IMG/VR virus record: IMGVR_UViG_3300002461_000323
Location: 41,952-105,951 of that record
Reading direction: 5' to 3' (one strand)
DNA length: 64,000 nucleotides
Origin: a virus
Position numbers and translations under genes: made by a program. Positions 203-63,360 of the stretch are shown here, in pieces; position 1 is the stretch's first letter, and every line of letters begins with the position of its first letter. The notes beneath the pieces were generated by a model. That model saw only the letters and a list, made by a program, of their open reading frames with translations. It searched no databases and was not told where the DNA came from.

Positions 203-2122
203 ATGGTGGACAACGCGATCTCCCCGTTCTCACGGCCACTCTCGTACGAGGGTCCGGACAACAGCGGCTTCCTCGGGGCTCCCAAGGCCAACCAGTTCGC
301 CCAGCCATGGGGTGAGCCGTTCGAGGACGCCCAGGGCAATCCAATCAACCCGGGTACCCAGGGCGGCCCGAACTTCCGTGCGAGCATCCAGAAGACCAAG
401 GGCAAGTGGGGCAAGCGCCAGACCAAGGAGGTCCAGGATGTCGGGAACATCAGTTGGTACGGCAAGCCGCTGTCCACGAAGCCGGACGCCCGGAAGATGA
501 TCCTGAGCTTCAACGGACCTACCAGCCGGTACTTCCAAGAGGAGTTCTCGTACGGCAGCACTCAGGCACACAGGGAGGTCTACCGTGAGGGTGGTCTGGT
601 GGGAATCGCCCCTGGCCCGGTGCTCGGCGCGGCCGTGCAATCAATTGCAGTCGGCAGCCCGCCCGAACCCACGGACCACCTGAACGTCGTCTGCCTGTAC
701 AACGGTCAAGAGTTGCTCATGCGCAGGCCGCTGAAAGGCCCGTACTACCGTGCGAAGTTCGGTGAGAAGACCGAGCAGCGGCTGTCGGAGTTCAAGAGCC
801 TGACCAACCCCGATGGCTGGGTGACTGTCGGCCAGATCACGATCTCCAACGACTACGACCAGGCGAAGACCCCGTGGTTCTTTAACGAGAGCGGGACTGA
901 GGCCCAGTGCATCCGCATGCGCGAGAAGCAGGGTCTGGACCGCAACGGTGCACCTGTGCCTGAGCGTGCGGGTGACCGGTTCAAGATCACGGTCGGACCA
1001 TCGAACGTCAGCCTCAGCCCCGAAGGCAATGAGCCGTCGTTCGAGTTCAAGGAAGACGGCGAGTCGTTGGCGCTCCCGAACTTCACCAGCCCGATCGACC
1101 AGTTCGGGTTCACTCACAGTTGGTACGAGCACCGAGTGACCTTCAACTCGAAGATGACGGGCAAGCAGGTGGTGGCAGTCGATTACATCGGAGACACCGA
1201 AGTGCTGGTGTACGCGGTGATGGACGTTGACTACCAACTGACCAAGGACTACATGAAGGGCCGGGACAACGAGACCGACGGCGGCATCCAGAAGGGGCCG
1301 TACGACAACCGGGGCTCGTACTCGAACCCGCAGGAACTCGGGGCTGACAAGATCAACTTCTCGGTCGGCGACCACCTGGCGCGGACCTGGTACGGCGGGA
1401 GTGCGAGCCTGACGCTGGAGTTCGAGGTCGAGGGTGTCGAGTACGTGATTCCCCTGGAGTTCACGACCGGCCTGACATCCGATCAGTACGATGGCCGCCC
1501 GTACACACCGCCCAATCGAGACCTGTTCTACCGGGAGTACGTGATCCAGTACCCTCGGTTCTTGGACGTCCGGGGCGGCGGGATGTTCGTCAGCCGCCTG
1601 TACCAGTTCAAGGACTTCGTGGTCCAGGGGCGGAAGTCCGAGGCCGAGAGCGAGACCGTGGACTTGGACTTCGCCGACAACCAGACCAACATCTACCTGC
1701 CGGGGGCTGACAAGTGGACAGCCAGCTTCTACTCCCCGCCGAACCCGCTGAACAACAACGCAGCCAGTTGGAACGAGGTGAAGGCGTACCCGGCCGCTCC
1801 TTGGACCTGGGCGACCAAGACGTTCATCGGCAAGCGGCCGACCGAGAACGACACGGGGATTGTCGGCAAGATTCCGTTCAAGACTTGGTTTGAGCCCACT
1901 CAGACGGTGCTCTACAATAGCTGGTACGGCCTGACCCTGCTCTACCACGACAAGTTCACGACCGACTGCGGGTTCGCACACCGGGAAGACGGCTCGTACA
2001 TCGTTAGCGGAGTGTTCGTTGACCCGGACACCAAGGCGTTGAAAGAGGCCATGCGGAGTCAGCCATTCGACGCCAAGGGCCTCACCAGCGGACAAACCTA
2101 CCACCCCCTGGGTGAAATGTAA
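203..2122 (+). CDS. putative virion structural protein (639 aa)
   Basis: Long ORF with strong codon bias in the tail-gene region; no recognised motif. Confidence 0.6.
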   Translation: MVDNAISPFSRPLSYEGPDNSGFLGAPKANQFAQPWGEPFEDAQGNPINPGTQGGPNFRASIQKTKGKWGKRQTKEVQDVGNISWYGKPLSTKPDARKMILSFNGPTSRYFQEEFSYGSTQAHREVYREGGLVGIAPGPVLGAAVQSIAVGSPPEPTDHLNVVCLYNGQELLMRRPLKGPYYRAKFGEKTEQRLSEFKSLTNPDGWVTVGQITISNDYDQAKTPWFFNESGTEAQCIRMREKQGLDRNGAPVPERAGDRFKITVGPSNVSLSPEGNEPSFEFKEDGESLALPNFTSPIDQFGFTHSWYEHRVTFNSKMTGKQVVAVDYIGDTEVLVYAVMDVDYQLTKDYMKGRDNETDGGIQKGPYDNRGSYSNPQELGADKINFSVGDHLARTWYGGSASLTLEFEVEGVEYVIPLEFTTGLTSDQYDGRPYTPPNRDLFYREYVIQYPRFLDVRGGGMFVSRLYQFKDFVVQGRKSEAESETVDLDFADNQTNIYLPGADKWTASFYSPPNPLNNNAASWNEVKAYPAAPWTWATKTFIGKRPTENDTGIVGKIPFKTWFEPTQTVLYNSWYGLTLLYHDKFTTDCGFAHREDGSYIVSGVFVDPDTKALKEAMRSQPFDAKGLTSGQTYHPLGEM

Positions 2123-2133
2123 GAAAGACGATC

Positions 2134-2904
2134 ATGCCGATTACCAGTTCAGACGTCGCGTTCAAGCGCAGCACCCACACGGTGAGCACGATCCAGGGCC
2201 TCGGCGGTCCGATCGGTACCCAGATTTTCTCGCAGTCGGCGAGTGTCGCGGGGATTGTCACGGGCGTGGCCATCCAGAGCGCGAGCAACAACACCCCGGG
2301 CCTCGGACAACTCTCGTACAACCCGAGCAACCAGTTGCTGGCCTGGCAGCCGCCGACGAAGACCACGTTCTCCGGGATCATCATCACCGGCAGCGGCACG
2401 TACACGATCGGCAACGTCGATGGCTTCATCACCGTGGTTGTGACGTTCGCCAGCCTGCCGTCCGTGTACAAGGTGGAGACGATCACGATCTCGAACGGGA
2501 TCAACAACGTGTTCGACGACATCAACCCCGCACAGGCGTTGATCGGGCAAACCGACTACCGGTGCCTGTACTTCCAGAACAATCACCCTTCGCTGACCGC
2601 CAGCGACATCCGGCTGTTCGTCAGCGGGCCGCCCGCGCTTCCGCACGTGTTCGCCATCGGCCTCGACCCCGCAGGCCCAGGCAACGGCACGAGCACGGGT
2701 GTCGCACAGACGATCGCGGGTAAGACGATCGCCCCCACGGGAGTGGTGTTCACGGCCCCGCTGTTGGCCTCCAGTGGACTGTTCCTTGGCTCACTCGGAC
2801 CCGGGCAGGCGATCGCGTTCTGGGAACGACGAACGATCCCCGCAGACTCCTTCGGGCTGATCCTGCTGGTGACCGCGAGCGTCGGCGTGGCGCTGATCGG
2901 GTGA
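2134..2904 (+). CDS. putative tail/virion structural protein
   Basis: Beta-rich Gly/Thr/Ser protein; the YRCLYFQNN and FWxRR motifs recur in the C-terminal part of 3664..5547. Confidence 0.6.
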   Translation: MPITSSDVAFKRSTHTVSTIQGLGGPIGTQIFSQSASVAGIVTGVAIQSASNNTPGLGQLSYNPSNQLLAWQPPTKTTFSGIIITGSGTYTIGNVDGFITVVVTFASLPSVYKVETITISNGINNVFDDINPAQALIGQTDYRCLYFQNNHPSLTASDIRLFVSGPPALPHVFAIGLDPAGPGNGTSTGVAQTIAGKTIAPTGVVFTAPLLASSGLFLGSLGPGQAIAFWERRTIPADSFGLILLVTASVGVALIG

Positions 2905-2907
2905 CGT

Positions 2908-3408
2908 ATGCCCGGACGTCTTAGCCCGTGGTTGATCAACGGCTGCATCGACACGATTCTCCGGAGCGAGTTCGTAGGCGGCCCAGCGGTGTTCGGCAAC
3001 GACTGGTACCTGAGCCTGTTGGTTGAGAGCCCAGACCCGTACATGGGGCCGTTCGACCAGTTCTTCATCTACCCACGGGCAACCGAAGTCGTGTACACCG
3101 GGTACGCACGCCAGCGGGCCAACCAGTTGAACACCAGTTGGAGGCGCACAGACGGTGACAACGGCACTGCGGCGTCCTCAGGCACCACCGGCGAGACATC
3201 GGTGGGCAACCGCCTGTACTACCCGCTGTGCACGACCTCCACCCAGGTGATCACCCACGTGGGGTTGATGGGCAGCAACATCATCGACCCGGACTTCAAC
3301 TACTGCTACGGGTACTTCACGCTCCAGTTCCCGATCCAACTCCAGAACGCGGCCCCAGGCTTCTACCCGGTGATCGCTCAGGATGCGTTGAAAGTCAAAT
3401 TCGCCTAA
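2908..3408 (+). CDS. small virion protein, divergent member of a 5-gene paralog family
   Basis: The TEVVYTGYARQ and AASSGTTGETS segments match TEVAGGSYARV and ASSGTGGTTS of 18008..18478. Confidence 0.6.
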   Translation: MPGRLSPWLINGCIDTILRSEFVGGPAVFGNDWYLSLLVESPDPYMGPFDQFFIYPRATEVVYTGYARQRANQLNTSWRRTDGDNGTAASSGTTGETSVGNRLYYPLCTTSTQVITHVGLMGSNIIDPDFNYCYGYFTLQFPIQLQNAAPGFYPVIAQDALKVKFA

Positions 3409-3412
3409 GACC

Positions 3413-3663: not shown

Positions 3664-5547
3664 ATGCCGACCACCCTGTACTTCGCACAGAACACCGCGT
3701 TCCCCAAGGGACCCGGCACGTATCCCACCCTCGCTACCCAGTACGCGAACCTCACACAGACGGGCGCGGTGACGACCGAGGGCTGCATGCTCCCGTACAC
3801 CTGGAGAGCGGTTGCCAACCTCTCGGGTAACAGCCTGAACAACACGACAGCCCAGCGCTTCAGGTTCGGACGGTTCTTCAGCGCACCGTTCGCGCAGGAC
3901 TACACGTGGGTGAACCCGGTGAACAGCGCGGGTGCCATCAAGTTCTTCCTCAGTGACTTCGAAGCCAACCTGAGTGCAAACCATGCAGTGCAGAGTGTGT
4001 GCATCTACGTGTGGAGACCGAGCACGGGTACACGCATAGGCTACCTCTCCCAGATCGCAGACACGCTTGCGGGCGCAAAAGAGCCGACTGCGATCAACGC
4101 GATTCAGAACACGTTGGGCGAGTACTTCACCACCGCAGGCAACATAGCGATACTTGCAGGCGACATTCTGGTGTTCGAGCCGTTCGGCACGTTTACCCAA
4201 GCAGCGGCTACCGCGTACAACATCCGGTTCTACTACGGTGGAGTCACCGCGATCACGACCGAGAACACCGCTGCGGCAACCCCCGCCAGTAGGGTGGACT
4301 TCCCGTATGACCTGCCACTGCTGTACCCACCGAACACGGCTGTCGGCTCGATGGACACGATCGCGTTCTCGGGCACGCTCCCACCGCTGCTGGTAAGCCG
4401 GTTGAACGGTGAGGCCTCGATCATCGACGGCCAAGGTCTGGTGGACGGCTCGCGCTTGCGTGCACGCCTACAGGCCAAGGCCACGTTCTCACCTGCGAGC
4501 CTGAACACACGGGTGCTGCTCAACAGTGGACTGCACTCAATTGCAACGCTCACGAGCGCACTCCAGCAACGGCATGAACTCCAGACAGCGGCTGTGGGCA
4601 CGAGTGAGAGCCTCGGGCAGTTTGAGTCCCGGGCAGTCGGTGATCTGCTCAGCCTGTACTACAGCGGGAGCGGAAGCTCTGGCAATCCCGGACTCTCCCT
4701 GGGCGGTGCTCGCGGAGCCGCGTACGGTGACCAGCAGGTGGTGTTCGACACCGCGATCCCCGGGCTGCAGTTCATCCAGTGCTCGAATATCCGGAGTGGG
4801 CCGATCAACCTGGTGACTGACCCGATTGCCCAGACGATCTCCTGGGTGATCCACCCGCTGCTGATCAAGACCAGCTACTACGGTGGGAACGTGGACACGG
4901 TGTTCGTCGGAGACCTATCCAACGGATTCCTGGTGTTCCGGGTGACCGACAAGAACGCCGTACCCGCTCTGCAATTGATTGCAAACGCGGTCAACCTGGA
5001 GAACACGCTGTTCGCCAACCCGAGCTTGAGCGTGCTCGCATCCGGGGAGACCGTGTACCGGGCGCTGTTCCTGATGAACTACAGCGCTCAGGACATCGAA
5101 CTGCCGGTGCTCAGCCTCGACCACAGTTCGATCGAGACCATCAGCATCGGCACCGAGTACGTGAGTAACCTGAACCTCACCCAGTACCAGCGCAAGATCG
5201 ACGTCCATCGTCGGGGTACGGACGTCACCGGCAGGGGCGACAACCTGTTGATCGCTCCGATCCTGCAGATCAGCCTGAACGTCAGTCCGCTGGGCAATCC
5301 AACGATGTACTCGACGATTGGCCGGGCGCAGGAAACCGACGGTATTTCCACGCAGTTGCCGACCACGCTCGTCGATCAGTTCGATTCCACGCTGCTTCTC
5401 TCGGAGGTACAATTTGGGCCTACGCTCAGTTGGCCGAGGATCAAGGCTGGCAAGGGAGTGAGCTTCTGGGTCCGCAAGGTCCAGCCTCCAGGGGTGGTGC
5501 CACCGGTCACCCAGAAGCTAGGTTTCAAAGTCACCGGCACCTTCTAA
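3664..5547 (+). CDS. putative tail/virion structural protein (627 aa)
   Basis: Beta-rich ORF whose C-terminal domain resembles 2134..2904. Confidence 0.6.
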   Translation: MPTTLYFAQNTAFPKGPGTYPTLATQYANLTQTGAVTTEGCMLPYTWRAVANLSGNSLNNTTAQRFRFGRFFSAPFAQDYTWVNPVNSAGAIKFFLSDFEANLSANHAVQSVCIYVWRPSTGTRIGYLSQIADTLAGAKEPTAINAIQNTLGEYFTTAGNIAILAGDILVFEPFGTFTQAAATAYNIRFYYGGVTAITTENTAAATPASRVDFPYDLPLLYPPNTAVGSMDTIAFSGTLPPLLVSRLNGEASIIDGQGLVDGSRLRARLQAKATFSPASLNTRVLLNSGLHSIATLTSALQQRHELQTAAVGTSESLGQFESRAVGDLLSLYYSGSGSSGNPGLSLGGARGAAYGDQQVVFDTAIPGLQFIQCSNIRSGPINLVTDPIAQTISWVIHPLLIKTSYYGGNVDTVFVGDLSNGFLVFRVTDKNAVPALQLIANAVNLENTLFANPSLSVLASGETVYRALFLMNYSAQDIELPVLSLDHSSIETISIGTEYVSNLNLTQYQRKIDVHRRGTDVTGRGDNLLIAPILQISLNVSPLGNPTMYSTIGRAQETDGISTQLPTTLVDQFDSTLLLSEVQFGPTLSWPRIKAGKGVSFWVRKVQPPGVVPPVTQKLGFKVTGTF

Positions 5548-5988: not shown

Positions 5989-8900
5989 ATGGCGCTGTTC
6001 TCCGACCTGCCAAGGATTTGGTCCCGTGAGGAGATAAACACCAGCACGCAGTACATCGTCGAGTGGACTGACGGTGGGCCGTACGTGGTGTTCAGAAACC
6101 CACGCCTGGTTCTTGATCTCGACACCGCGACCTTCGGAGCCCGGGTAGAGTCCAGGGATGTGTTCATCAACGGGGCGATCTCGCAGACGCTCAGAGCCGG
6201 TGCCAACAGCTACGGTGAGGACTTCGGTGACGCCGGGGTGGTCAGTAGCGGGCTGCCCGCTGTGTACTTCGACGCTGGCAGTGGCCGCCTGCCCTCTTAC
6301 GCAGAGTTCACCGAGTGGTTCGGAGTGTTCTCGGAAGACCGTTCGTTCTCCCAGAGCTTCACGTACCTGCGGGGTGCCAACCAAGTGCTGTACACCCGGG
6401 CGAACACCACGGTAGGCGGCTACCCGGGCAACACGTTGGAGAGCACGGGCATCCTGCACGGAAGCGCGATCTTCCAGACCGACCCGCAGTGCATCGCGTT
6501 CTCGCCGACCAACGTCTGGGTGTTCACGCACAAGGACACGGTGAGCCCGGCTGTGAACTCCGAGGTCTACCTGGATGTCTGGAACGGTACGACCGTGACC
6601 TCGACTCAGCGGCTTGATCTGGACGGCCCTATCCTGCACTACCAGATCATCCGTGGGACCACCGGGCAGGTGTACCTGATGTACGTGAAGTACGGGACCG
6701 GCCCCGGATTCGGTACGGGGTACATCCGGGCGATCAACGAGAGTACCCGGGCGCTGTCCGCCATCCTCTGGTCCGGGCCAGTGGGTACCAGCGGCTTCCC
6801 TGACCTCGCGGGCTACCAAGACAACATTTGCTGCAACAAGGTCTACACGTTCGGGACCACGAACTACCTGGTGAACCTCTGGAACAGTGTGATGACTGTT
6901 CACACGTACCAGACGAGCACGCCTAACACGCTGACCCTTCTGTGTACGGGAGAGTTCGCTAACACCACGGCGTACATGGGCAAGAGCGCGGGTGTCGAAT
7001 ACGACCCGGTGTCTGGTGACGCCCACCTCGTGCACTGGCAGATCAAGGACTACTTCGCTACGGGCGGGGAGTTCTCCAACCAGTTGACGCTTGTACGGCA
7101 GTCGCACAATATCAAGCTCAGCACGTTCACGCTCGTCACCGCCAACGCACAGGAGATTCAGGGCTTCGTCGGCATTCCATCGAACCCGAACTTCCAGATT
7201 CTGGACGAGGGCCAAATCCAGTGCTACATCCCGAGCAACGTCGGTGCGGATCGCGATGCGTTCTTGCACTTCTACTGCACTGAGCGCTCTGGGGGGCAGG
7301 CGGTACTGCTCGGCTTCTACGTGCGGCTCAAGAACTGGAACAATCCCGGGCCAATCGATGGCGCGGTGGACGCCACGATCACTGCTGTCGGGGCGACTGT
7401 TCTCGGGGCCGTCGATTACGGGGTGGGCGTGGAGATCATGCCCGAAGTCGGGGTGACTGCTGCGGGTGTGCGCCCACGAGAGTTCCAGATGAACACCCGC
7501 TGGGCACTCCAGGCGAACGCGAACGTCGATGGTGAGGTGCTGATCGACATCCCGGTGGAGGTGGAGGTCAGCGGAGCCACCGGCGATCTCGAAGACTCCG
7601 CGCTTGAGATCAACCCGGATTTAGAGGTCAGCATCGGGAGCGAGATCGTCCGCTTGCGGGATGGCGAGGTCGTGATCGCACTCGATCTGCTGGTGGACAT
7701 CCAGGCCGAGTCCAGCCCTCCGATGGTCGAGGTGTTCCTGAACACCACCTGGCTGTACACGGGCATGGGGTTCATGGCCGAGTTCCAGAACTACATGAAC
7801 GAAGAGCGGGCGACCGTCTTCGGTCTGCCCCCGTACAAGATCATGGGCACGGACGCGATCTCCCGCAAGTTCCTGGAACTGGAAGACATCGCCAGCCGCC
7901 ACAGCCGTCAGATGGCGTTCTACCGGGTGTTCGCTCACGCCAACTCCGTGTTCGAACCCGGCTGGCAGACGATCGAGCAGCGGGTGGGCTACCTGACGAA
8001 CGCCGGTGCCGAGAACATCTTGTTCTTCGCGAACACCGAGTACGGCTCTGGGCTGACCCCGCTGCCCACCGCGTACGAGACCTACCTGTCGTGGAAGAAC
8101 AGCCCGCCCCACTACCAGAACATGACGTACAACTGGGGTGACGACAACGACAAGGTGTATTCGGTGTTCGGCTACGAGTTCGGCCTGAGTATGTCGAACG
8201 TGGACTTCTCCGGATTCTCCGGGCCGCCCGTGGACGACACCTGGGAATTCTTCTACGCGACAAACAACTTTCTGGTTTTGAAGGAGACCCTTATGGAAAC
8301 CTCTGTAGCTCAATACTGGGCGTTCCGAGGGCTGGACGGGCTTTTCCTGCCCCAGTTCTGGAACACCAACTACTACACGCCGATCAAAGTCGAGGCCGAT
8401 TACCCGTACGCACTCGCGATCTCCACTGAGTTGGATGTGCCGTTGAACTCCGTGATCTCGGTCGAGCACGAGCACCCATGGACATCCCAGGTGCTGTCGG
8501 AGATCGTCCACAACTGGGCGCTTGCGAGCGTGAAGGTGCAGGCTGAGGCCTCGTACCTGTACGACCTGCAGCGGCTGCCGGTCTCCAGGGAGATCGAACA
8601 CGCGTACTCGGTGAAGGTCTCCCTGGAGATCGAGTTCCCGTACGCCGACTCGTTGAAGGCCCGGTCAGAGATCGAGATCATTCTCAGCAGCCTGCAATCA
8701 GTTGCACGAGAGCAGAGCATGAGCCTGCCGCTCGGCCCACGTGTGCGTGTGGAACGTGACAGCCCTTACGAACTGGAGCTTCGTCCCCAGGTGGCGGCTG
8801 AGCAGACGATCCTGTACGCGCTGGAGAGCGTGAGCATCGGCAGTGCCCAGCTTGAAGTGCAATTGATTGCACGGGGCATCAGCACCCGGATTCAGGATGG

Positions 8901-11074: not shown

Positions 11075-11304
11075 GCGCGATCTCAGACCTGCGCAAGCTC
11101 GTCCAGCCCAAGGGCCAGGCGTACGAGATCGGTGAGGTCGTGGTCGTCGAGGCCACGCGGGTGATCGTGCGCGTGGGAAGCCGTGCAATCAATTGCAGCA
11201 CGCTCGTACCCGTGATTGCCGGTGACAGCGTGCGCGTACAAGGCCTGCTGATCGTCAGCAAACAGCAGAACATCGCGAACTCCGTGCCGGTCTTCCGGGT
11301 CTGA
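11071..11304 (+). CDS. small OB-fold-like tail protein (possible spike-associated)
   Basis: GEVVVV..VIVR...GDSVRV pattern; ATGA overlap. Confidence 0.5.
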   Translation: MSAISDLRKLVQPKGQAYEIGEVVVVEATRVIVRVGSRAINCSTLVPVIAGDSVRVQGLLIVSKQQNIANSVPVFRV

Positions 11305-13982: not shown

Positions 13983-16582
13983 TGGCTGACTACCACGTAG
14001 ACCCGGCCACCGGGGTGGACACGAACACCGGGGCATCCTGGGCTCAGGCCTGGAAGACGCCGAACGGCCTGCGCGTGAACTCTGTGGTCATGGTCGCGGG
14101 CGACCGCCTGAAGTTCGCGAAGTCGGTGATGACGACCGGCAACACCGGGGATACCGTGCAGTTCCCGACGTTCACAGGCCAAGGCATCACGTTCTTCGGC
14201 AGTGCCGCCTGGACGTACATTTCTCGGCGCTCGACCACGGCCACGAACTTCCCGAGCCCACGGTACTTCAACGGCACCTGGCAGACATCGCTGACCTGGC
14301 AGTTCTTCACCGCGAACTTCTACCCGTTCGAAGGCAGGTCAACTACCGGGCTGTTCAACCCCCCGAGCCGTCGCCTGGCCTACCAGTTCGCTTCGAACCT
14401 GAACTTCAACGGTCTCCGCACGGTCTGGATGTGGTTCCGGGTGAGCGTGCCGTACACGGGAGCCGGGGACATCGACGTACCCCCTGGCACGTTCTCTATC
14501 CTGCTGTGTTCGGACGGCGCGGGACTGACCCCGTTGCTGACGATCCCGGTGGACGTGTGGATCAAGAACACCGGAGAGTGGGCGTGCGTGCGCTACGAGC
14601 ATCCCGCTGACTTCACGACCCTCGGAGCGGTGAACTCGGTCGCCGTTCACCGGACCGCCCAGACGTTGAACCGGGACAACACGGGGTTCGGCCTCACCTG
14701 GAGCCCGCTGCTGTTCGGGCGCACGGCCATCCAAGACCACTCCCTAGACTACGTGTTCAAGGTGCCAGACGTTCGTCCTAGCCCGGCCATCCAACCGGAC
14801 GCCGTGCTGGTCAACCCGTTCTGCCTGGCTGAGATAATGTACCCGGTGCACGGGATGACCGGATCGAACATCGGGTACACGATCCCCACCCAGTACAGCG
14901 CAAGCAACACGTTGACGCTCGCCGACCGGTACACGGCCTTCCCAGTGCCTCCGTCGGGTCAGTACGGTCTCGGGTACGTGGGGGCCGCCAACTGGCCGTT
15001 CGCAGCCCCGACATCCACCGGCGCTTTCGACCTGAACGGCAGCGCGGGCGGCACCCTCGCTCAGCCGGTGACGCTGGAAGGTGGTTGGAACACCGCGACC
15101 GACGTCGTTGACGGGGCCACCGTGTACACCGGGCGCACACCCCAGGAGTACGGGCACACGGCTGCGCTGTTCGACCTGCAGAACGCTGAGCACGTGGTGA
15201 TCAAGAACATCGGTGCGATCTACGGGTTTGGACGGTTGATCGACCGCGCCAGGACGATCACGCTCGACCGCTGCCACCTGCCGTACTCTCACAGGGGCGG
15301 GGTGAACACGCTGCCGCCGTTGGGCACACCCAGCACTGCAATCAATTGCACGATGAAGAACATGATGGTCCCGAACTACACGTTCGAGTACATCGGGGTG
15401 ATCGGCAACCTCACGCTTCAGAACTTCTTTGCCAACACGTTCGAAGACCGCAGCCCTCTGCAGTACGTGGAGGTCGAGAACCTGGTGATGGACGCCGCGT
15501 ACGTGGGCCGCCGCAACAACACGGACGTCTACACCTGGCACTTCTCTGTCCGTGGTGATGCCGAGCTTGCGAACACCACGATCATCTACCCCCCGAGGAT
15601 CGTCAATCGGTCCAACTTCGGGCGCACGATGACCATCCGCAACCTCTGGACATGGAGTCAGTACGTGTCTCAGGGCTACCGGCTGGTGCCGACACTCCCG
15701 GACAGCCGTTGGGACACGATCGTCTACCGTAACAACGGCAGCTACAACGGCGATTGGGCACCCGGCAGCACGACCCTGCCTGCCTCGTGTGACCGCAGGA
15801 TCGAGTTCAGAGACAACACGAACAGCATCCTCGTGAACGATACGTTGCTGGGCAGCCAGTTCGCGAACACCGAGGCCGCGCAGTTGGTGGGCTCAGTCAA
15901 GACGCTGACAGCCGGGTTCTACTCGTTCTCCCTCGCCCCGAACAATAGCAGCACCGGCACCACCCCAGGCCTGCGGGCTTACTCGTATGCCTACCGGTTT
16001 CAGCTTGGCGGGAGCAATTTCTCCGATCGCTGGGCTCCTCTGGCGTCTACCGAGCCATCGATCCCACAGGATGTGGACTTCGTGTTCGTGGGCTCAAACG
16101 CAGCGGCTATACTGCCCCGCAGTCCTGCCATCTTCTTCAGGTCGGCCCAAGACTACTTCCTGCTCGTCAGCTACTCTTCTGGCTACCCCGGCTCTGCGGT
16201 GGCGACCGCCTACGTTGAGGGCGGGAAGAACTACAAGTTCAAGCTCGGATGCCAGTACCGCAACCTATCGATACAGAACAATGCCAGCGGTGCGCCTCCC
16301 TGGTACAACGTGTTCTCCGACAACTTTTCGTGCACTGAGCCGGTGGAGCACTTCAAGATCGTGATCCGGGGTCCGGGCGTGGTCGCTGGCGTGGACCTGG
16401 TGATCCCGTACTTGGACGGCCCGTACAATGAGTTCTCGAACACCGCCCGCAACGACTGGCGTGATCTGGAGTTCCCGTTCTCGACAATCGCTGAGGGAGA
16501 GGTCACAATCTACCTGTATGCGACGTTGAGCAACAACAGCATCGCCGTGATCATCGACAAGGCAGAAGTGGAGCTTGCATGA
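13982..16582 (+). CDS. tailspike/receptor-binding protein (866 aa), paralog of the previous gene
   Basis: N-terminus YHVDPATGVDTNTGASWAQAWKT; internal PVTLEGGWN..DGAT matches PIIIRGGFN..DGLT of the previous gene. Confidence 0.65.
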   Translation: MADYHVDPATGVDTNTGASWAQAWKTPNGLRVNSVVMVAGDRLKFAKSVMTTGNTGDTVQFPTFTGQGITFFGSAAWTYISRRSTTATNFPSPRYFNGTWQTSLTWQFFTANFYPFEGRSTTGLFNPPSRRLAYQFASNLNFNGLRTVWMWFRVSVPYTGAGDIDVPPGTFSILLCSDGAGLTPLLTIPVDVWIKNTGEWACVRYEHPADFTTLGAVNSVAVHRTAQTLNRDNTGFGLTWSPLLFGRTAIQDHSLDYVFKVPDVRPSPAIQPDAVLVNPFCLAEIMYPVHGMTGSNIGYTIPTQYSASNTLTLADRYTAFPVPPSGQYGLGYVGAANWPFAAPTSTGAFDLNGSAGGTLAQPVTLEGGWNTATDVVDGATVYTGRTPQEYGHTAALFDLQNAEHVVIKNIGAIYGFGRLIDRARTITLDRCHLPYSHRGGVNTLPPLGTPSTAINCTMKNMMVPNYTFEYIGVIGNLTLQNFFANTFEDRSPLQYVEVENLVMDAAYVGRRNNTDVYTWHFSVRGDAELANTTIIYPPRIVNRSNFGRTMTIRNLWTWSQYVSQGYRLVPTLPDSRWDTIVYRNNGSYNGDWAPGSTTLPASCDRRIEFRDNTNSILVNDTLLGSQFANTEAAQLVGSVKTLTAGFYSFSLAPNNSSTGTTPGLRAYSYAYRFQLGGSNFSDRWAPLASTEPSIPQDVDFVFVGSNAAAILPRSPAIFFRSAQDYFLLVSYSSGYPGSAVATAYVEGGKNYKFKLGCQYRNLSIQNNASGAPPWYNVFSDNFSCTEPVEHFKIVIRGPGVVAGVDLVIPYLDGPYNEFSNTARNDWRDLEFPFSTIAEGEVTIYLYATLSNNSIAVIIDKAEVELA

Positions 16583-17644: not shown

Positions 17645-17709
17645 CCTGCAATTGATTGCACGGTGGACAGCCGGGAGGTAGACTCACGGCTACCGCACAA
17701 GGACCACCG

Positions 17710-25026: not shown

Positions 25027-25052
25027 ATGCAATCGATTGCAGTCATCCGGTC

Positions 25053-27971: not shown

Positions 27972-28000
27972 CCTTCTGCAATTGATTGCGCTGCCTGGTC

Positions 28001-43246: not shown

Positions 43247-43728
43247 ACTACACGGTACTCGGCGTCGATCCGAGCACGAAGACCGGTCTGGCGTTCATCG
43301 ATGGCACGGAGGTCTCGACCTCGGTAATCCAGTACGAGAAGATGAAGGGCATGCAACGGATTGCACTCTTGCAGAGTGAGTTCGAAGAGCGGCTTTACAA
43401 GTGGAATCCCGGGGTTGTCGTGGTCGAGGGCTACGGGTTCGCCAACAAGTTCACCCTCTCGCTGATGGTCGAAATCGGGTGCGCTTACAGATTGGTTTTG
43501 CACAAATCAGGGATTCCCTGGTACTATGTGCCCCCTACGGTGCTCAAGAAGTACGCCGTGGGCAATGGAGCAGCGAAGAAGCCGCAGGTCGCGGCTGCTG
43601 TAAAGGACCGTTGGGGCTTCAACTCCCCTTCGGATGATGTGGTTGACGCGTACGTTCTAGCCAAGATCGGCCAAGAACTGAGCGTTTCAGGGGTCTCAAC
43701 AGACCTAAAAGGGGTTGAGCGTGGTTGA
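43243..43728 (+). CDS. RuvC-like Holliday junction resolvase
   Basis: LGVDPS..TG, VVVEG, KK...G.G.A.K and D..DA motifs. Confidence 0.85.
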   Translation: MNYTVLGVDPSTKTGLAFIDGTEVSTSVIQYEKMKGMQRIALLQSEFEERLYKWNPGVVVVEGYGFANKFTLSLMVEIGCAYRLVLHKSGIPWYYVPPTVLKKYAVGNGAAKKPQVAAAVKDRWGFNSPSDDVVDAYVLAKIGQELSVSGVSTDLKGVERG

Positions 43729-44552: not shown

Positions 44553-44571
44553 TGCAATTGATTGCGCCATA

Positions 44572-44600
44572 TTGACAAACCAAACGGGCCGGGCTATAAT
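44572..44600 (+). promoter_or_regulatory. sigma70-type promoter
   Basis: TTGACA-17-TATAAT. Confidence 0.85.
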
Positions 44601-44636
44601 TGACAGTCAGGCCCCCTTCAACATCAGGAGTATTTC

Positions 44637-45473
44637 ATGAGCGAAGACCAAGCAGCAGCCGCAACCGACGGCGCACAAACCCAGGTGACGGAGACGGCAG
44701 AAGCCGCGACCCTGCCTCCCACGGCTCTCGCAGCCAGCAAGGCCACGAAGTCCGGCGACCTGATCGCTGACATCGCGCACGAGATCGAGACCATGACCAA
44801 GGTCAAGGCTCTGAATCGCGCCGAGAAACTGGCCGAAGACATCGAAGCCAACTACTTCAAGCTGGGTGGCCTGCTGAAGCTGATCCTCGCACAGCAGTGG
44901 TTCGAGGGCTTCCCCTCGTTCGGCGCGTTCGTGCTGGAGAAGTTCGGTTTCGCCGAGCGCAAGGCCCATTACCTGATCAGCATCTACACCCAGTTGGTGG
45001 ACAAGCAGATTCCCTGGGAAAAGGTGCAGCACCTCGGCTGGACCAAGCTCAAGGACCTCGCGGCGGTGCTCACGCCTGAGAACGTGGACGATTGGGTGGC
45101 GAAGGCCGAGAAGGTCAGCGTGGCCGAACTGCAGGCGATGCTCAAGGGCACTGGCGGCAACGAAGGTGGCGAGCCCAGTTCCGCTGGCACGTCCGACGTC
45201 GTGTCGTGGAAGGTCAAGCTGCACAAGGACCAGCACGAGTCGGTGAACATGGCGCTGGCGAAGGCCAAGGGCGAAATGCAGACCGACCACGACAACGTGG
45301 CGCTGGCCGCAATCTGCACCGGCTACCTTGCCAACAGTTCGGGTGTGGTGGCCTCCGGCCCCGCCGCCGATCCCGTGGAGACCTTCAAGTCCATGGGCTA
45401 CGAGGCAGTGTTGGGCGTGTTCGAACAATCGTTCCCGAACATCGACCTTGAAGTCACGGTGAAAGCCGCGTAA
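44637..45473 (+). CDS. putative DNA-binding protein (DUF3102-like helical/HTH region)
   Basis: LG..L..I......GF.SF..FV...FG...RKA.YL pattern; SD AGGAG. Confidence 0.55.
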   Translation: MSEDQAAAATDGAQTQVTETAEAATLPPTALAASKATKSGDLIADIAHEIETMTKVKALNRAEKLAEDIEANYFKLGGLLKLILAQQWFEGFPSFGAFVLEKFGFAERKAHYLISIYTQLVDKQIPWEKVQHLGWTKLKDLAAVLTPENVDDWVAKAEKVSVAELQAMLKGTGGNEGGEPSSAGTSDVVSWKVKLHKDQHESVNMALAKAKGEMQTDHDNVALAAICTGYLANSSGVVASGPAADPVETFKSMGYEAVLGVFEQSFPNIDLEVTVKAA

Positions 45474-46273: not shown

Positions 46274-46720
46274 GTGACAGTGGCAATCACGATCAAGATA
46301 GTTCCGAGCGCAGCCGTGCAATCACTTGCAGCCGCCCAAGAGAAGGCAGCGGCAGCAGTCGCAACCCCGGTGGCAGTCTCTGCCCCGCCAGAGCCCGCCC
46401 CGATTGCCGTGGCCTCTGAGAAGGCGGCAGAAGCAGGAAGCACGTTTCTGGCAGCACTAGCGGGCAAGGCCGAGGCCCCGCTGCCCTGGGAGGCCGATGA
46501 GTCGTACACGATCATGGAGGCGCTGAAAGAGCACTTCGATCGCTCACGCAAGGGTGAGACCCTGTATCTGCGCAACCGTACGACCGGTCAGATGTTCTTG
46601 GTCAAGGGCTACAACTCTGATGACGGCCGAGCCCTGCTGGAGAGCCCGGAAAAGGCTACACTCAAGCCCGTGATCACGAAGCGCGAGGTCCCGCTCTACG
46701 AGCCGTTCTGGAGGTCTTGA
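46274..46720 (+). CDS. hypothetical protein
   Basis: AAGGAG SD; GTG start at 46274 or 46280. Confidence 0.6.
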   Translation: MTVAITIKIVPSAAVQSLAAAQEKAAAAVATPVAVSAPPEPAPIAVASEKAAEAGSTFLAALAGKAEAPLPWEADESYTIMEALKEHFDRSRKGETLYLRNRTTGQMFLVKGYNSDDGRALLESPEKATLKPVITKREVPLYEPFWRS

Positions 46721-47587: not shown

Positions 47588-49477
47588 GTGCAATCGATTG
47601 CAGCCGACGGCCTCGAAGGCCTCGACCCGTTGCACGTGCTCGAACTGGCAAAGCACAAGCCGGACGTCCTGCTGCAGTGGCTCTACCAGAACCTTGAGAA
47701 CCCTCCGGAGAAGCTGGACGAGCAGTGGATTCAGGCGATCCATCGTGGCGGTCGCCGGTCAACTGGACTGCACATCGACCAGGAGTTCACGCTGGCGATG
47801 CAACTCAGCCGGTACCCAGTGGACATCGAGACCTTCCTGTTCGGACGCCACTACCTGCAGAAAGAGCGCCGGGAAATCTACCCGGAAGTCCTGCAGGAAC
47901 TGAAGAACATCAACAACCCGAGCGGCCTGCGGATCATCAACCCGTACACCGAGGGCGTGTTCACAGGCGGCATCGGCTCAGCCAAGAGTACGACCGCGCT
48001 GTACACCAACGCCTACCAGTTGTACGTGCTCAGTTGCTTCGAGAGCCCGCACGCGACGTTCGGCCTGGACACGGCATCCGAGATCGTGTTCGCGTTCCTG
48101 GCGGTTGCCGGTAATGCCGCAGACACCGATTACAGCCGGTTCTACCAGATGCTCAAGGAGAGCCCGTACTTCAACCTGGAGTTTCCGTACAACCGCCGTC
48201 TTGAGTCGGAGATGCACTTCCCGCACCGCATACAGGTGGTCCCGCAGATCAACACCATCGGCCAGAACGTGATGGGTGGGCTGATCGACGAGGTGAACTT
48301 CGGTCAGGTGATCCAGAACTCCAAGCGCTCGATCGACGGCGGCACCTACGACCAGACGCTGACCGTCTACAACGGCCTGGCTCGACGCAGGAAATCCCGG
48401 TTCTTGGGGCAGGGCACGATGCCCGGCATCCTCTGTCTGGTGTCGTCCAAGCGGTACCCTGGCGAGTTCACGGACAAGAAGCTGGAGGAGGCACGGACTG
48501 ACCCCAGCATCTACGTGTACGACAAGCGGGTGTGGGACGTGAAGCCCGAGGGCACGTACAGCGGCAAGCGCTTCAAAGTGTTTCCAGGGTCGGTTCAGCG
48601 CAAGCCCGTGGTGATCACGCCCGAGATCGAGATCGAGTTGTCGGTCGAGGAGAAGGCGGCGCTGATCGAGGTGCCCATCGAGTACCGCAAGGAATTCACG
48701 GATGACATGATCGGCTCGCTCCGGGACATCGCGGGCGTGAGCACGATCGCCAGACACCCGTACTTCCAGAACGTGAACGCGGTGAGCGGGTGCTTCGGCC
48801 AGCGCCAGTCGATCCTGAACCTGGAGGCCACGGACTTCGAGACCAGCCAGCTTCAGTTCTTCGCCAAACGCATCCGCCACCCGCAGCTACCCCGTTGGGC
48901 GCACATCGACTTGGGCGTGACCTCCGACAGCGCAGGCATCGCCTGTGGGTATGTCCCGCAGTTTGTGCTCAGCCCGGACGAGATCGGGATGATGCCGCAG
49001 GTTGAATTCGACTTCATTCTGCGGGCAACCCCGCCGCTGAACGGCGAGATCAAGTTCTACAAGATCAGGAAGATGTTGATGGCCCTGCGCGAGGCCGGGA
49101 TGAACATCAAGTGGGTGTCGTTCGACGCCTTCCAGTCTGTTGACAGCATCCAGATTCTGCGGAACGCCGGATTCTCCACCGGCAGGCAGTCGGTTGACCA
49201 GAACGCGGGCTTCTACGGGGTGCTGAAAACCGCGATGTACGCGAACCGCGTGAAGGCCCCGCAGCACACCGTCTGCCAGACAGAGATTTTGCGCTTGGAG
49301 CGGGACACGCGCACTGGTAAGATCGACCACCCACCAGACGGCTCCAAGGATTGTTCTGACGCAATGGCGGGTGTGGTCTACGGTCTGACCATGCGCAGAG
49401 AGATTTGGAGCATGCACAATGTCCCATTCAACCAGATTTATCAATCGGTCAAGGAAGTACAGGTGAAAACAGAATGA
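47588..49477 (+). CDS. terL: terminase large subunit
   Basis: Walker A GGIGSAKS, Walker B GGLIDE, coupling motif VSS, nuclease HIDLG..D, SFD..QS and IDHP..GSKD.SDA. Confidence 0.88.
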   Translation: MQSIAADGLEGLDPLHVLELAKHKPDVLLQWLYQNLENPPEKLDEQWIQAIHRGGRRSTGLHIDQEFTLAMQLSRYPVDIETFLFGRHYLQKERREIYPEVLQELKNINNPSGLRIINPYTEGVFTGGIGSAKSTTALYTNAYQLYVLSCFESPHATFGLDTASEIVFAFLAVAGNAADTDYSRFYQMLKESPYFNLEFPYNRRLESEMHFPHRIQVVPQINTIGQNVMGGLIDEVNFGQVIQNSKRSIDGGTYDQTLTVYNGLARRRKSRFLGQGTMPGILCLVSSKRYPGEFTDKKLEEARTDPSIYVYDKRVWDVKPEGTYSGKRFKVFPGSVQRKPVVITPEIEIELSVEEKAALIEVPIEYRKEFTDDMIGSLRDIAGVSTIARHPYFQNVNAVSGCFGQRQSILNLEATDFETSQLQFFAKRIRHPQLPRWAHIDLGVTSDSAGIACGYVPQFVLSPDEIGMMPQVEFDFILRATPPLNGEIKFYKIRKMLMALREAGMNIKWVSFDAFQSVDSIQILRNAGFSTGRQSVDQNAGFYGVLKTAMYANRVKAPQHTVCQTEILRLERDTRTGKIDHPPDGSKDCSDAMAGVVYGLTMRREIWSMHNVPFNQIYQSVKEVQVKTE

Positions 49478-53283: not shown

Positions 53284-54009
53284 ATGAGCAAAACAGTTCT
53301 CGTGAGCACGGTCGCTGATCGTCGTGCAATTGATTGCGCGGAAGTCCTGTCGTGCGAGCAGTTCATCAAGCGTGAAGAAGCTGGCGGGACCGTGCTGATC
53401 GAGCCGACGTTCCTGGACTTCCGGGGCGCTGGCAACAGCCAACTCGGCTACCCGTTCATGGCCGTCGGCCACGCGCAGACCCGGTACGACCGGATTGGCG
53501 TGTTCCTCTACTACACGATGGAGAACGCACGCCAGTTCAAAGGCTACGTGCTGGACCTGCGGGCCAAGCTGGAGTCCACGCACAGCCACCTGGAGGTGAT
53601 GACGCTCCCGCTCGTGACCTGTGGCGTGCCGATCTCCGGTACCACGCTGGTGATCAAGGCCAGCAAGGGTCCGTGGGAGCCCGCGCTGAAGACCGAGCCG
53701 GTCATGCCCGACAAATACTTCCCGGGCATGCTCGCGCACGTGCTCCGCAACCGCCCGAACTTCCCGATCAACGTCAGCAGCCGATTCATCGGCGCGGTCC
53801 GGTCCGACCTGAACCTGCTGCCACCGCTGAACGCTTGGTCAGGCCGGTCGCTGATGGTCGAGTACCAGCGCGAGCGCACGACCGAGATCACGAGGATGAC
53901 GCCCGAGCACGTCGGCCAGTTGTTTGGCGTGAAGCCTGCGCCGTACACCGACGACCTGGCGATGATCCTGCCGCACGGCGTGGTCGAGGCATTCTCCAAC
54001 GCAGAGTGA
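53284..54009 (+). CDS. degenerate C5-cytosine methyltransferase-like protein
   Basis: Remnant motifs in canonical order: EPTFLDFRGAG (IV), MENA (VI), CGVP (VIII), RMTPEHVGQLFG (IX), ILPH.VV.A (X). Confidence 0.45.
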   Translation: MSKTVLVSTVADRRAIDCAEVLSCEQFIKREEAGGTVLIEPTFLDFRGAGNSQLGYPFMAVGHAQTRYDRIGVFLYYTMENARQFKGYVLDLRAKLESTHSHLEVMTLPLVTCGVPISGTTLVIKASKGPWEPALKTEPVMPDKYFPGMLAHVLRNRPNFPINVSSRFIGAVRSDLNLLPPLNAWSGRSLMVEYQRERTTEITRMTPEHVGQLFGVKPAPYTDDLAMILPHGVVEAFSNAE

Positions 54010-56475: not shown

Positions 56476-56493
56476 CTGCAACTGATTGCACAC

Positions 56494-57599: not shown

Positions 57600-57857
57600 A
57601 TGGGAAGATACCGTGACCTCAGAGCCCTGGGGAACGTGCTGCTGGGAATGCTGGCCGTCGCAGCGTTGATCGGGATTGTGGCCCTCGGCCGGGCGCTGAC
57701 TTTCAACCAACTGGGAATGGCCTCGTTCTTCGACCCGAAGTTCGAGCAGGTTCGGCGTGACACGTTCGAGACCCCGAAGGCCTACCGGGGCGGCATGGCG
57801 CCCCTCCGATCGTCAGCCCTTTCAAATTCTGATGCAATCAGTTGCACCAGTTCTTGA
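57600..57857 (+). CDS. membrane protein (possibly truncated)
   Basis: AAGGAG SD; one TM segment. Confidence 0.5.
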   Translation: MGRYRDLRALGNVLLGMLAVAALIGIVALGRALTFNQLGMASFFDPKFEQVRRDTFETPKAYRGGMAPLRSSALSNSDAISCTSS

Positions 57858-60248: not shown

Positions 60249-60419
60249 ATGTCAGCAGTAGTTCAAGTTCAAGAGTTCTTTCAAGACAGTGGTTGGGGCG
60301 ACGAAGTTCAGATCGACATCGAACTGCCGCCCGTGCGCGAGTTCAAGTCCGAGTTCTGCGAGAAGCTGGTGCAATCGATTGCACTCCGCACGCTCGTTGA
60401 AGGTGTGGAGTACCTCTGA
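60249..60419 (+). CDS. early hypothetical protein
   Basis: AAGGAG SD after the promoter. Confidence 0.6.
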   Translation: MSAVVQVQEFFQDSGWGDEVQIDIELPPVREFKSEFCEKLVQSIALRTLVEGVEYL

Positions 60420-61654: not shown

Positions 61655-62010
61655 GCGACCCCCTCATTTTCGTGTTGGCGGTGCTTGCGGTCATCTGCCT
61701 GGTTGTCGCAATGTTCTACCACTTGATCCTCATGGCCCAACGCGAGCAGCGTCTGGTAGAGGAGCGCGAGACCGACCGCAATCAATTGCAGAAGTTCGGA
61801 GCGGGCCATGGCAGTGCTCAGGGGTACATGGCGGCCAAGGACACGATCTTCCGCTACCCACGGGCAGGCGACACCCCGGCACCACGAGGCGCGAAGGTGC
61901 TGATCCTGACCGAGGGCGGCGTCTGCGTGGTCGGCCAGTGGAAGGACGAGCGCTGGTGCATTGGCTGGCACCCGCTCCCTGGCCGAGACCGCACAAAGGA
62001 GCAGGCATGA
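61651..62010 (+). CDS. membrane-anchored DUF551-like protein
   Basis: N-terminal TM segment; C-terminal KVLIL...W.PLP. Confidence 0.5.
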   Translation: MSDPLIFVLAVLAVICLVVAMFYHLILMAQREQRLVEERETDRNQLQKFGAGHGSAQGYMAAKDTIFRYPRAGDTPAPRGAKVLILTEGGVCVVGQWKDERWCIGWHPLPGRDRTKEQA

Positions 62011-62647: not shown

Positions 62648-62651
62648 GCAC

Positions 62652-62999
62652 ATGACCGACACCTCAGACATCGAGAAGTTCAAGGCGCTGTTCGTACTCG
62701 CGGGCATCGCGGTCACGAACGTCCACGAACTGCCGAACGGCTACTGGCCCGAGTCGTATGCGGACCTGCGTAAGGCCCACCCCTGGGCGCTGATGATCAC
62801 CGAGTACGGCCCGATCAAGATCGGCTGGCGCAAGCGCGTGCTCAACATCAACTGGGCTGACACCGGCATCCGGACGATCATCACCGAGGACGACACGACC
62901 AAAGACGAGCAGATGGTGCACGCGTGGTCGTACGTCAAGGCCCTCGAATACCTGACCGACCTCCGCAGACTCCACACCGCAAAGAGGGCAGAAGCATGA
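62652..62999 (+). CDS. conserved phage hypothetical protein
   Basis: LPNGYW...PW...T.YG.IKIGWRKRV..I.W...VHAW motif. Confidence 0.6.
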   Translation: MTDTSDIEKFKALFVLAGIAVTNVHELPNGYWPESYADLRKAHPWALMITEYGPIKIGWRKRVLNINWADTGIRTIITEDDTTKDEQMVHAWSYVKALEYLTDLRRLHTAKRAEA

Positions 63000-63202
63000 T
63001 CAAAGCCACAGACTTGGTAATCGGAGGCCGCTACAACTGGCAGAACCAGGAGCAGCGGTTGGTGTATATGGGCCGGGCGATGTACCCGGGCGACCGCCGC
63101 ACCTGGTACCAGTTCGCACTCGTGGACACCCCGGACGTCTGCTGGTCCGAGGTCCTGGAGAGCGATCTGAAGATGTTCGAACAGACCCCGGAGGCCCCAT
63201 GA
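62996..63202 (+). CDS. hypothetical protein
   Basis: GGRYNW.NQ..RLVY.G...W.QF...VW.EV motif. Confidence 0.55.
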   Translation: MIKATDLVIGGRYNWQNQEQRLVYMGRAMYPGDRRTWYQFALVDTPDVCWSEVLESDLKMFEQTPEAP

Positions 63203-63360
63203 GCCTCGTCGCCGACCTCATCCACAGCGGGCTGGAGATCGCGGCGCTCAAGCGTACGGCCAAGCGGCACATGGACAAGCTGATGCAGGCCGGTGCGACC
63301 TTGCTCGACTTGTTTTACGTGCAATCGATTGCAGAGAACCTGGACAAGGCCAAGACATGA
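63199..63360 (+). CDS. small hypothetical protein (53 aa, not in the ORF track)
   Basis: GGAGG SD; ATGA overlaps at both ends. Confidence 0.5.
   Translation: MSLVADLIHSGLEIAALKRTAKRHMDKLMQAGATLLDLFYVQSIAENLDKAKT

Follow-up and report, generated by a model that had tools for sequence, protein, structure and literature searches.

Why should a virus carry the same short palindrome at regular intervals through its own genes, and which protein reads it? The question is raised by a 64,000-nucleotide stretch of viral DNA (hereafter the window), which corresponds to bases 41952-105951 of IMG/VR record IMGVR_UViG_3300002461_000323, a 105,951-bp record of 61% G+C that is rated complete and in which all genes of the phage lie on the plus strand. 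The dyad TGCAA-N4-TTGCA is present in 20 exact copies in the window, compared to 0.06 expected and a maximum of one in dinucleotide shuffles, and in 31 exact copies in the whole record. The conserved core of these sites, which we refer to collectively as the lattice, is GCAAT-YR-ATTGC, and at one mismatch or fewer to this core the genome contains 49 sites, of which 30 fall in the window. Look-alikes with the sequence GCAATGGAGTGCA are the Shine-Dalgarno regions of the first genes behind early promoters and were excluded from the count. We propose that the palindromes are docking sites for a dimer of a phage-encoded protein, most likely a 278-amino-acid (aa) protein with a predicted ParB/KorB-like DNA-binding domain, and consider this reading probable, if far from secure. 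The sites located in the window, to which no strand is assigned, are as follows.

636..649: site TGCAATCAATTGCA, inside a gene
4532..4545: variant site TGCACTCAATTGCA
4970..4983: site TGCAATTGATTGCA
8693..8706: site TGCAATCAGTTGCA
8858..8871: site TGCAATTGATTGCA
11184..11197: site TGCAATCAATTGCA
15337..15350: site TGCAATCAATTGCA
17647..17660: site at a gene junction
19626..19639: variant site TGCAATCAAGTGCA
20652..20665: perfect palindrome site TGCAATCGATTGCA
22755..22768: variant site CGCAATTGATTGCA
25028..25041: site 11 bp upstream of the -35 box of promoter 25053
27977..27990: site 10 bp upstream of the -35 box of promoter 28001
30526..30539: perfect palindrome site within an AAA ATPase gene
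31677..31690: variant site CGCAGTCAATTGCA
32822..32835: variant site TGCAATTGAGTGCG
35921..35934: site TGCAATCAGTTGCA
38883..38896: site at the start of an SF2 helicase gene, its place kept in Stenotrophomonas phage DLP5 and in a 178-kb uncultured relative
40887..40900: variant site TGCAATCAATTGCG
43352..43365: site TGCAACGGATTGCA in a RuvC-like gene
44553..44566: site 5 bp upstream of the -35 box of the candidate reader promoter, likely an autoregulatory operator
46317..46330: variant site TGCAATCACTTGCA
47589..47602: site at the large terminase start codon
49484..49497: variant site AGCAATCAATTGCA, directly past the terminase stop codon
50941..50954: site TGCAATCAATTGCA
53325..53338: variant site TGCAATTGATTGCG
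56477..56490: site TGCAACTGATTGCA at a gene junction
57833..57846: site 7 bp upstream of the -35 box of promoter 57854
60370..60383: perfect palindrome site
61777..61790: variant site CGCAATCAATTGCA
63320..63333: perfect palindrome site

The abundance of these sites within genes is not a by-product of the encoded proteins. When synonymous codons were shuffled within each gene, keeping every protein and the codon usage of every gene (100 shuffles), exact in-gene copies averaged 0.79 with a maximum of 3, compared to 24 observed, and in-gene copies at one mismatch or fewer numbered 33 in the genome against 4.3 in the shuffles. These 33 of the 49 lattice sites fall in all three reading frames (19:8:6), while the remaining 16 lie at gene junctions and in leaders, about three times the non-coding share. 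The gaps between sites have a mean of 2156 bp and a maximum of 4153 bp, compared to an expected maximum of 9440 bp, and their coefficient of variation (CV) is 0.45 as opposed to 0.98 for random placement, with none of 5000 random sets being equally even. On the coding strand, the centre TCAA is found at 15 and TTGA at 12 of the 49 sites, hence there is no tie to the direction of transcription.

Most of what an earlier note on this DNA had claimed is borne out by these figures. It had placed all 20 exact copies correctly, had put the mean gap at about 2 kb and the largest at about 4.2 kb, had described an even spread in both orientations and in all three frames of genes, and had argued for selection at the level of DNA and not of protein. 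Thirteen of the 14 variants that it listed have one or two mismatches, but the one at 57575 is weak, with three. Its comparison with LacI-type operators, which share a central CG, was overstated, as just 12 of the 49 sites have this dinucleotide (11 of them matching TGCAATCGATTGCA over all 14 bases) and relatives, which use CA/TG or TA instead, have it hardly at all.

The lattice is not peculiar to this genome. The seven sequencing runs listed as containing this DNA are metagenomes of activated carbon and drinking water, with no RNA run among them. No near relative was found by megablast of 20 kb against the phage collection; in a comparison of portal proteins, Stenotrophomonas phages DLP5, DLP3 and Summit came closest among named phages (48-49% identity), followed by Rhodobacter phage RcZahn, the RHph phages of Rhizobium and a group of Vibrio phages of 80 kb. 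In a motif-free count of all 5-mer dyads with gaps of 0-8 bases, the top dyad was TGCAA-N4-TTGCA or GCAAT-N2-ATTGC in ten of ten related genomes, and many uncultured relatives also carry the lattice. With at most one arm mismatch there are 41 copies in DLP5, 29 in RHph_Y1_11, 26 in RcZahn, 17 in Vibrio phage PJ32 and 46 in the 178-kb uncultured relative, each of these five having its own flavour of the motif. Spacing is again more even than chance, with gap CVs of 0.56 in DLP5, 0.49 in RHph_Y1_11, 0.63 in RcZahn and 0.69 in the 178-kb relative (each P <=0.01) and of 0.63 in PJ32 (P ~0.03).

The earlier note had asked whether sites in relatives change position while their density is conserved, and over long evolutionary distances this is largely the case: among sites in alignable genes, three of ten are kept in DLP5 and none of seven in RcZahn, and density stays. 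Near the aligned position of the site at 43352 there is a site 11 bp off in DLP5 and one 35 bp off in the 178-kb relative. Over the shorter distance between DLP5 and DLP3, 28 of 35 aligned cores are identical, compared to 11% predicted to be intact from the 83% identity of their 300-bp flanks. Such protection of cores, taken together with long-range turnover, indicates that selection maintains individual sites and, in the long term, their density and spacing.

The presence of candidate genes was profiled by iterative hidden Markov model searches across ten genomes. Considering proteins of up to 460 aa without an assigned role, five families occur in at least four of the five complete relatives, and the 278-aa protein is present in six of six complete genomes; MerR-like, ParB_N, PAPS-reductase and DnaD-like genes are not in all six. 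The gene and its promoter lie as follows.

44637..45473, plus strand: candidate lattice reader, 278 aa, PHROG 17202
44572..44610, plus strand: sigma70-type promoter of the candidate reader, TTGACAAAC ... TATAAT

The orthologue is preceded by a site 69-88 bp upstream in DLP5, RcZahn and RHph_Y1_11, although sites at most other places have turned over, and in about 21 of 47 distinct uncultured loci a lattice site lies upstream of the gene at a distance of 47-191 bp, compared to 7-14% expected. With 188 database hits at 50-69% identity, the family is better conserved than the portal protein. Only two hits to it were found among 185,579 bacterial species genomes, one in Azospirillum sp. RU38E (L140, contig NZ_FZOI01000013.1) and one on a contig of an Acidobacteriaceae metagenome-assembled genome (L139). 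In Azospirillum, lattice-type sites are clustered at 2-58 kb of the 169-kb contig while the other 6.1 Mb have only scattered matches, so that the clade has a resident member in this genome, either a prophage or a co-assembled episome.

An AlphaFold2 model of the 278-aa protein, built from 30 homologues, is confident over residues 40-172 (predicted local distance difference test score, pLDDT, >90) and disordered over residues 1-33, so that the predicted fold begins at the DNA-binding domain, a ParB/KorB-type helix-turn-helix (HTH) domain of approximately residues 40-172. Foldseek alone gave no match with an E-value <=0.001, and the link to ParB appears only on structural re-alignment, which yielded Z 9.9 over 115 residues (3.2 A) for Spo0J-parS (4umk), 8.7 for Caulobacter ParB (6t1f), 8.6 for Noc-NBS (6y93), 6.8 for the KorB DNA-binding domain with operator (1r71) and 4.8 for SopB (3mky), the first four alignments covering 106-115 residues each. 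When 48,161 representative chains were searched independently of Foldseek, only nine reached Z 5; the top eight of these are ParB, Spo0J or KorB domains or the Raf1 N-domain, and unrelated proteins begin at 5.0. The helix layout of the model (H107-122, H127-130, H135-141) agrees with the CBM1/CBM2 layout described for this family (PMC3597684), in that it places a putative second DNA-contact helix two helices beyond the first, as in the extended HTH of the ParB/Spo0J/Noc/KorB superfamily. Further along the chain, residues 186-240 form a predicted strand-helix-helix unit (pLDDT 83 when modelled alone) with weak matches, at Z 3.2-4.4, to the ribbon-helix-helix proteins MazE9, NikR, AmrZ, Arc, PutA and pCXC100 ParB.

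ParB and Noc proteins are able to shift specificity through few residues, and the half-sites of the lattice vary among the 80 uncultured loci encoding homologues (27-61% identity) that we compared: TGCAA is usual, but lattices of TGCAC, TGCAG, TGAAA, TGACA and GGCAA were also found. Residue 139 of the 278-aa protein tracks base 5 of the half-site. This residue ends the helix GWTKLK (residues 134-139), the second helix past the recognition helix; in the ParB family that helix bears the second centromere-binding motif, with base-contacting arginine or lysine residues at SopB R219, KorB R240 and Spo0J R179 (PMC3597684). Lys139 is paired with TGCAA in dozens of loci. Arg139 is paired with TGCAC in four of four Arg lineages, the first of which has 11 exact copies of TGCAC-N4-GTGCA in 51 kb, while the others have, at one mismatch or fewer, 23 copies in 92 kb, 12 in 40 kb and 6 in 75 kb; the last of these phages seemed motif-free until it was searched for the motif predicted from its residue. 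Ala139 is paired with TGCAG in two lineages, with 28 exact copies of TGCAGAYRTCTGCA in 108 kb and 5 in 56 kb. The Arg lineages are dispersed over a quick maximum-likelihood tree and imply four changes, at least two of which are forced by well-supported branches, and there are sister pairs that differ in residue and motif together (L128 with Arg and TGCAC, L132 with Lys and TGCAA) or in which Ala with TGCAG is opposed to Lys (L098 and L093). The result is a simple candidate recognition code in which one residue is set against one base, and the dimeric DNA-binding protein that the earlier note had postulated thereby gains a concrete candidate, the residues of which vary in step with the motif.

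Two relatives depart from the common pattern. In one phage (L086/L087; IMG/VR 3300037419_001192, 102.7 kb) the lattice is denser and has the form GGCAAT-YR-ATTGCC, at about one site per 1.5 kb, and the recognition helix of its reader begins with RTI instead of an RKA that is otherwise invariant. The change may amount to a second specificity switch, yet one phage with RKA also has one GGCAAT site. The 178-kb relative encodes three tandem paralogues of the candidate reader (G006, 113262-116610; locus L096), and its sites mostly consist of one TGCAA arm and one TGAAA arm, the two orientations of this asymmetric form being equally common (14 and 14); heterodimers reading two half-sites would explain them.

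Several observations weigh against the 278-aa protein as reader or against parts of that reading. No Pfam family was detected in it or in 30 homologues at E-values up to 5, and a sequence-profile search of the PDB gave one insignificant match and none to ParB. Helical models can match by chance at Z 7-10, the range observed here, and the argument from fold therefore rests on the family-specific clustering of the matches and on their coverage of the full domain. The unit at residues 186-240 is possibly a ribbon-helix-helix dimerisation domain, an assignment from the predicted structure at Z 3.2-4.4; as the ribbon-helix-helix fold is an obligate dimer it would fit a dyad site, and we offer this as a lead only. 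For many rows of the covariation table the motif class was derived from loci of 20 kb; moreover the covariation is not absolute, with mixed A/G at base 5 where residue 139 is Gln or Ser and a few TGCAC arms in some Lys-bearing phages. Links between base 3 and residue 136 and between base 1 and residues 109-110 were considered and dropped because of exceptions (L131, L112, L090). Finally, the ParB N-terminal CTP-binding domain (PF02195) had no Pfam hit in the 278-aa protein or the 30 homologues. Having no CTPase domain, the candidate cannot slide as KorB does, and dimers bound at points would have to act over 2 kb in some other way.

The relationship of the lattice to promoters offers some insight into what such a protein may do. 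The genome contains 20 near-identical sigma70-type promoters, all on the plus strand and composed of TTGACAAAC, about 13 bases and an extended -10 element like gTTATAAT. Eight of them lie upstream of the window; those in the window, and the leader motifs that accompany a number of them, are given below.

24678, 25053, 28001, 30797, 35247, 44572, 51069, 54028, 54448, 56172, 57854 and 60191, plus strand: first bases of -35 boxes of sigma70-type promoters
24751, 28039, 51105, 54103, 54492, 56214, 57917 and 60234: leader motif GCAA[TAC]GGAGTGC, with four more upstream of the window

None of the 20 falls within genome positions 24053-66629, the entire block of head, tail and lysis genes, and the late promoters are therefore of another type. 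At four of the 20 promoters the centre of a lattice site lies 12.5-18.5 bp upstream of the -35 box, compared to 0.21 expected, and none of 5000 random sets reached four; the remaining sites are 80 bp to 1.7 kb from the nearest promoter. The motif GCAA[TAC]GGAGTGC is present in the leaders of 12 of the 20, mostly 36-44 bp past the start of the -35 box, where it doubles as the Shine-Dalgarno sequence. It has the architecture of a lattice site, with a GCAAT arm, a TGCAC-type arm and a GG centre, and may serve as a low-affinity operator placed at about +8 to +21, or be no more than a copied leader cassette.

We propose that the palindromes act as high-affinity docking sites on double-stranded DNA, each bound by a dimer of the 278-aa protein. 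The site 5 bp upstream of its own -35 box suggests that the protein probably controls its own synthesis, together with that of three other early operons of the same layout. The other ~45 sites, mostly in genes and never separated by more than about 4 kb, would load the protein along the whole chromosome, and the result may be a scaffold of KorB or Noc type that marks and organises the phage DNA and damps its transcription. As no clamp is predicted, point-bound dimers might bridge, act as road-blocks or recruit a partner, or another subunit might supply the clamp. Selection against long gaps points to a function for which every few kilobases of DNA have to be covered; this could be the compaction or positioning of replicating DNA, discrimination between self and host, or genome-wide damping of transcription in a carrier or phagemid state, options among which we suggest no ranking. 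DLP5 and DLP3 reportedly persist as phagemids, a state that the authors of those studies link to ParB domains (PMC7326821, PMC5834331).

The earlier note had held that no known system matches a symmetric, evenly spread, intragenic array. This was overstated, as close analogues exist among the arrays of the ParB family, which are symmetric and dispersed. Plasmid RK2 has about 12 sites for its protein KorB. As in the phage, these O_B sites are copies of a single 13-14 bp palindrome dispersed over the replicon (PMC11790492; 1r71), some of them adjoining -35 boxes and most lying far from promoters, and KorB has the ParB-type extended HTH to which the candidate reader was matched above, reading bases outside the classical HTH (PMC3597684). 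KorB combines global silencing with partition and reaches distal promoters as a CTP-gated sliding clamp, for which it requires its N-terminal domain (PMC11790492). The phage differs in having ~49 sites, evenly spaced and mostly in genes, and in a candidate reader that is without the N-terminal CTPase domain and thus outside the class of CTP-dependent sliding clamps; nor did we identify a KorA- or IncC-like partner or detect any sequence similarity to KorB. No ParA-type ATPase was found among the ~50 proteins scanned, which are part of the gene set, and a 417-aa ATPase present throughout the clade matches PHROGs of AAA/clamp-loader type, not ParA. In Bacillus subtilis, Noc similarly reads scattered 14-bp palindromes (NBS) by means of a ParB fold (6y93, 7ol9), but it is cellular, has a CTPase domain and targets the membrane through its N-terminus, its sites have not been reported as evenly spaced, and its role in nucleoid occlusion has no obvious place in a phage.

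Other dispersed arrays are more distant. The stoperators of L5 and other Cluster A phages are similar in number (tens of copies, about one per 2 kb) and in being read by a phage protein that silences genome-wide, but they are asymmetric, oriented with transcription and mostly intergenic, and their reader is the immunity repressor. The lattice sites, by contrast, are dyads found in either orientation and lie within genes in two thirds of cases, and the lattice extends to relatives not known to be temperate. The centromere sites of N15 and the C1 operators of P1 are partition and immunity sites scattered over plasmid prophages, and for DLP5 too a phagemid state has been reported (PMC5834331); N15 has four sites only, the P1 operators are asymmetric and at promoters, and neither array has been reported as even or as lying in coding sequence. 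Full-text searches for several spellings of the motif returned unrelated primers only, and the genome papers of DLP3, DLP5 and RcZahn are silent on it (the 'DLP3' of PMC13326640 is an unrelated Acinetobacter phage). We therefore regard the lattice as kin to the site arrays of the ParB family, hence with precedent in kind, rather than as something without analogue.

It is also necessary to consider whether something other than the 278-aa protein acts at the sites. Another DNA-binding protein of the phage might read them, the chief contender being a 139-aa protein with a MerR-type HTH encoded at 40018-40437 of the window, between the genes for an SF2 helicase and a UvsX-like recombinase. RacA with its ram sites would be the analogue of such a reader. 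MerR-type dimers bind palindromes, the domain is recognised (MerR_1, E 1.5e-6, and a PHROG match to 'transcriptional regulator'), and conservation of the protein extends to DLP5, the Vibrio phage and the 178-kb relative; nevertheless iterative profile searches did not find it in RcZahn or RHph_Y1_11, both of which bear a lattice, and no site is linked to its own promoter. We consider this explanation unlikely.

The sites might instead be targets of an enzyme, such as a nickase or nuclease, a modification enzyme (for example from the PAPS-reductase/GNAT/ParB_N gene cluster), a primase or the packaging machinery. DLP3 DNA resists 15 restriction enzymes (PMC7326821), from which it is probable that the clade modifies its DNA, and a cluster resembling modification genes follows the terminase gene; further, RcZahn is circularly permuted (PMC8601537), such that even coverage of any possible end could matter. 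The cluster is however private to this genome among those compared, and for this reason we set it aside as the responsible system. In addition, a 14-bp dyad with differing halves fits a dimeric binder better than it fits the motifs of nicking, priming or modification, and we think a role as enzyme targets quite unlikely.

Proteins with a ParB_N domain, three small ones at 51691-53278 of the window and one of ~290 aa beside the terminase gene in DLP5, RcZahn and RHph_Y1_11, could in principle read the lattice and spread as CTP-gated clamps, alone or with the 278-aa protein. Their hits exceed the Pfam cut-off, the phagemid persistence of DLP5 and DLP3 has been tied to such domains, as noted above, and the 1.5-kb reach of KorB clamps (PMC11790492) comes near to half the spacing of the lattice. 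Against this, ParB_N was not found in the Vibrio phage or the 178-kb relative, which are both lattice-bearing, the three proteins in the window are of 154-194 aa with no further Pfam domain found, and a ParA-like partner is missing from the ~50 proteins scanned. That they read the sites is in our judgement very unlikely.

A regulator of the host could bind the sites as decoys or for host-dependent control, and one of LacI/PurR type would fit TGCAA-N-CG-N-TTGCA, since the perfect form TGCAATCGATTGCA resembles the central-CG operators of the LacI family. A host factor is made extremely improbable by the rarity of that centre here and in relatives, by the spread of the motif over phages of Stenotrophomonas, Vibrio, Rhodobacter and Rhizobium, that is, of both alpha- and gamma-proteobacteria, and by the Azospirillum genome, the one host-like genome examined, in which the sites are enriched only within the phage region; the motif variants, moreover, track a phage protein. 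Function as a DNA cruciform or RNA hairpin is scarcely credible even though all genes lie on one strand, so that every copy is transcribed, and many copies in RcZahn and the 178-kb relative lie 2-3 nt upstream of a Shine-Dalgarno sequence, because asymmetric forms (TGCAA..TTTCA, TGCAA..CTGCA) dominate in three relatives, full complementarity of the arms is limited to 15% (178-kb relative), 35% (RcZahn) and 52% (RHph_Y1_11) of copies, with mismatches that are not wobble pairs and no compensatory pairing, and what is conserved is the sequence rather than the pairing of a stem of only 5 bp.

Some neighbouring genes are of interest in their own right. Directly past the large terminase gene, window positions 49405-54009 encode a PAPS-reductase-like protein, a GNAT acetyltransferase, a 197-aa protein with a weak endonuclease match, the three small ParB_N-only proteins and a 303-aa uncharacterised protein, which together look like a DNA-modification module; PAPS or GNAT genes were found in none of nine compared relatives. 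Upstream of the window, genome positions 3207-17898 (G000; L005, L006) contain a set of genes conserved in the clade, for a PPDK-like kinase, two tyrosine-phosphatase-like proteins, a ThyX-like protein and a nucleotide kinase. Considered together with the restriction resistance of DLP3, the conserved kinase and ThyX-like genes suggest that the clade probably makes a hypermodified base. The DNA polymerase, also upstream of the window (L006:482-3670), is 1062 aa long, compared to ~760-800 aa in DLP5 and RcZahn, and its residues ~511-608 match unrelated PHROGs; this central stretch fits an inserted element such as an intein, as far as can be judged from sequence. Just upstream of the large terminase gene, a 283-aa protein (window 46734-47585) with a sigma70-region-4-like HTH and a weak DUF7342 match is probably the small terminase; at the same place DLP5, RcZahn and RHph_Y1_11 have a ParB_N protein and a 200-aa uncharacterised protein.

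Beyond the identity of the reader, we tentatively raise a broader possibility, to which we would give less weight: that a large clade of 80-180 kb siphoviruses infecting proteobacteria possesses an undescribed chromosome-wide address system, consisting of a CTPase-less protein of ParB fold and a lattice in which selection limits the gaps to a few kilobases, which lineages would recode through single residues of the second helix (Lys, Arg or Ala at position 139 set against A, C or G at base 5). If so, related phages would hold mutually exclusive lattices, akin to the incompatibility groups of plasmids, and the scaffold could serve a process for which phage DNA has to be marked at intervals of a few kilobases, for example condensation, positioning, discrimination between self and host DNA, or the genome-wide timing of transcription. 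If the reading proposed for the 278-aa protein is right, no array of ParB-fold protein sites known to us would equal the lattice in density and regularity; it runs through the coding sequence of an entire virus and is kept in phages from Vibrio to Rhizobium, with selection acting on the spacing of sites rather than on their position. A function would also be assigned to a widespread and highly conserved phage family without Pfam annotation (PHROG 17202), should the reading hold. The cultured members of the clade (DLP5, DLP3, Summit, RcZahn, the RHph phages and the Vibrio phages) make it testable, and the therapeutic use being considered for some of them lends practical interest to a genome-wide regulator possibly underlying their carrier or phagemid state.

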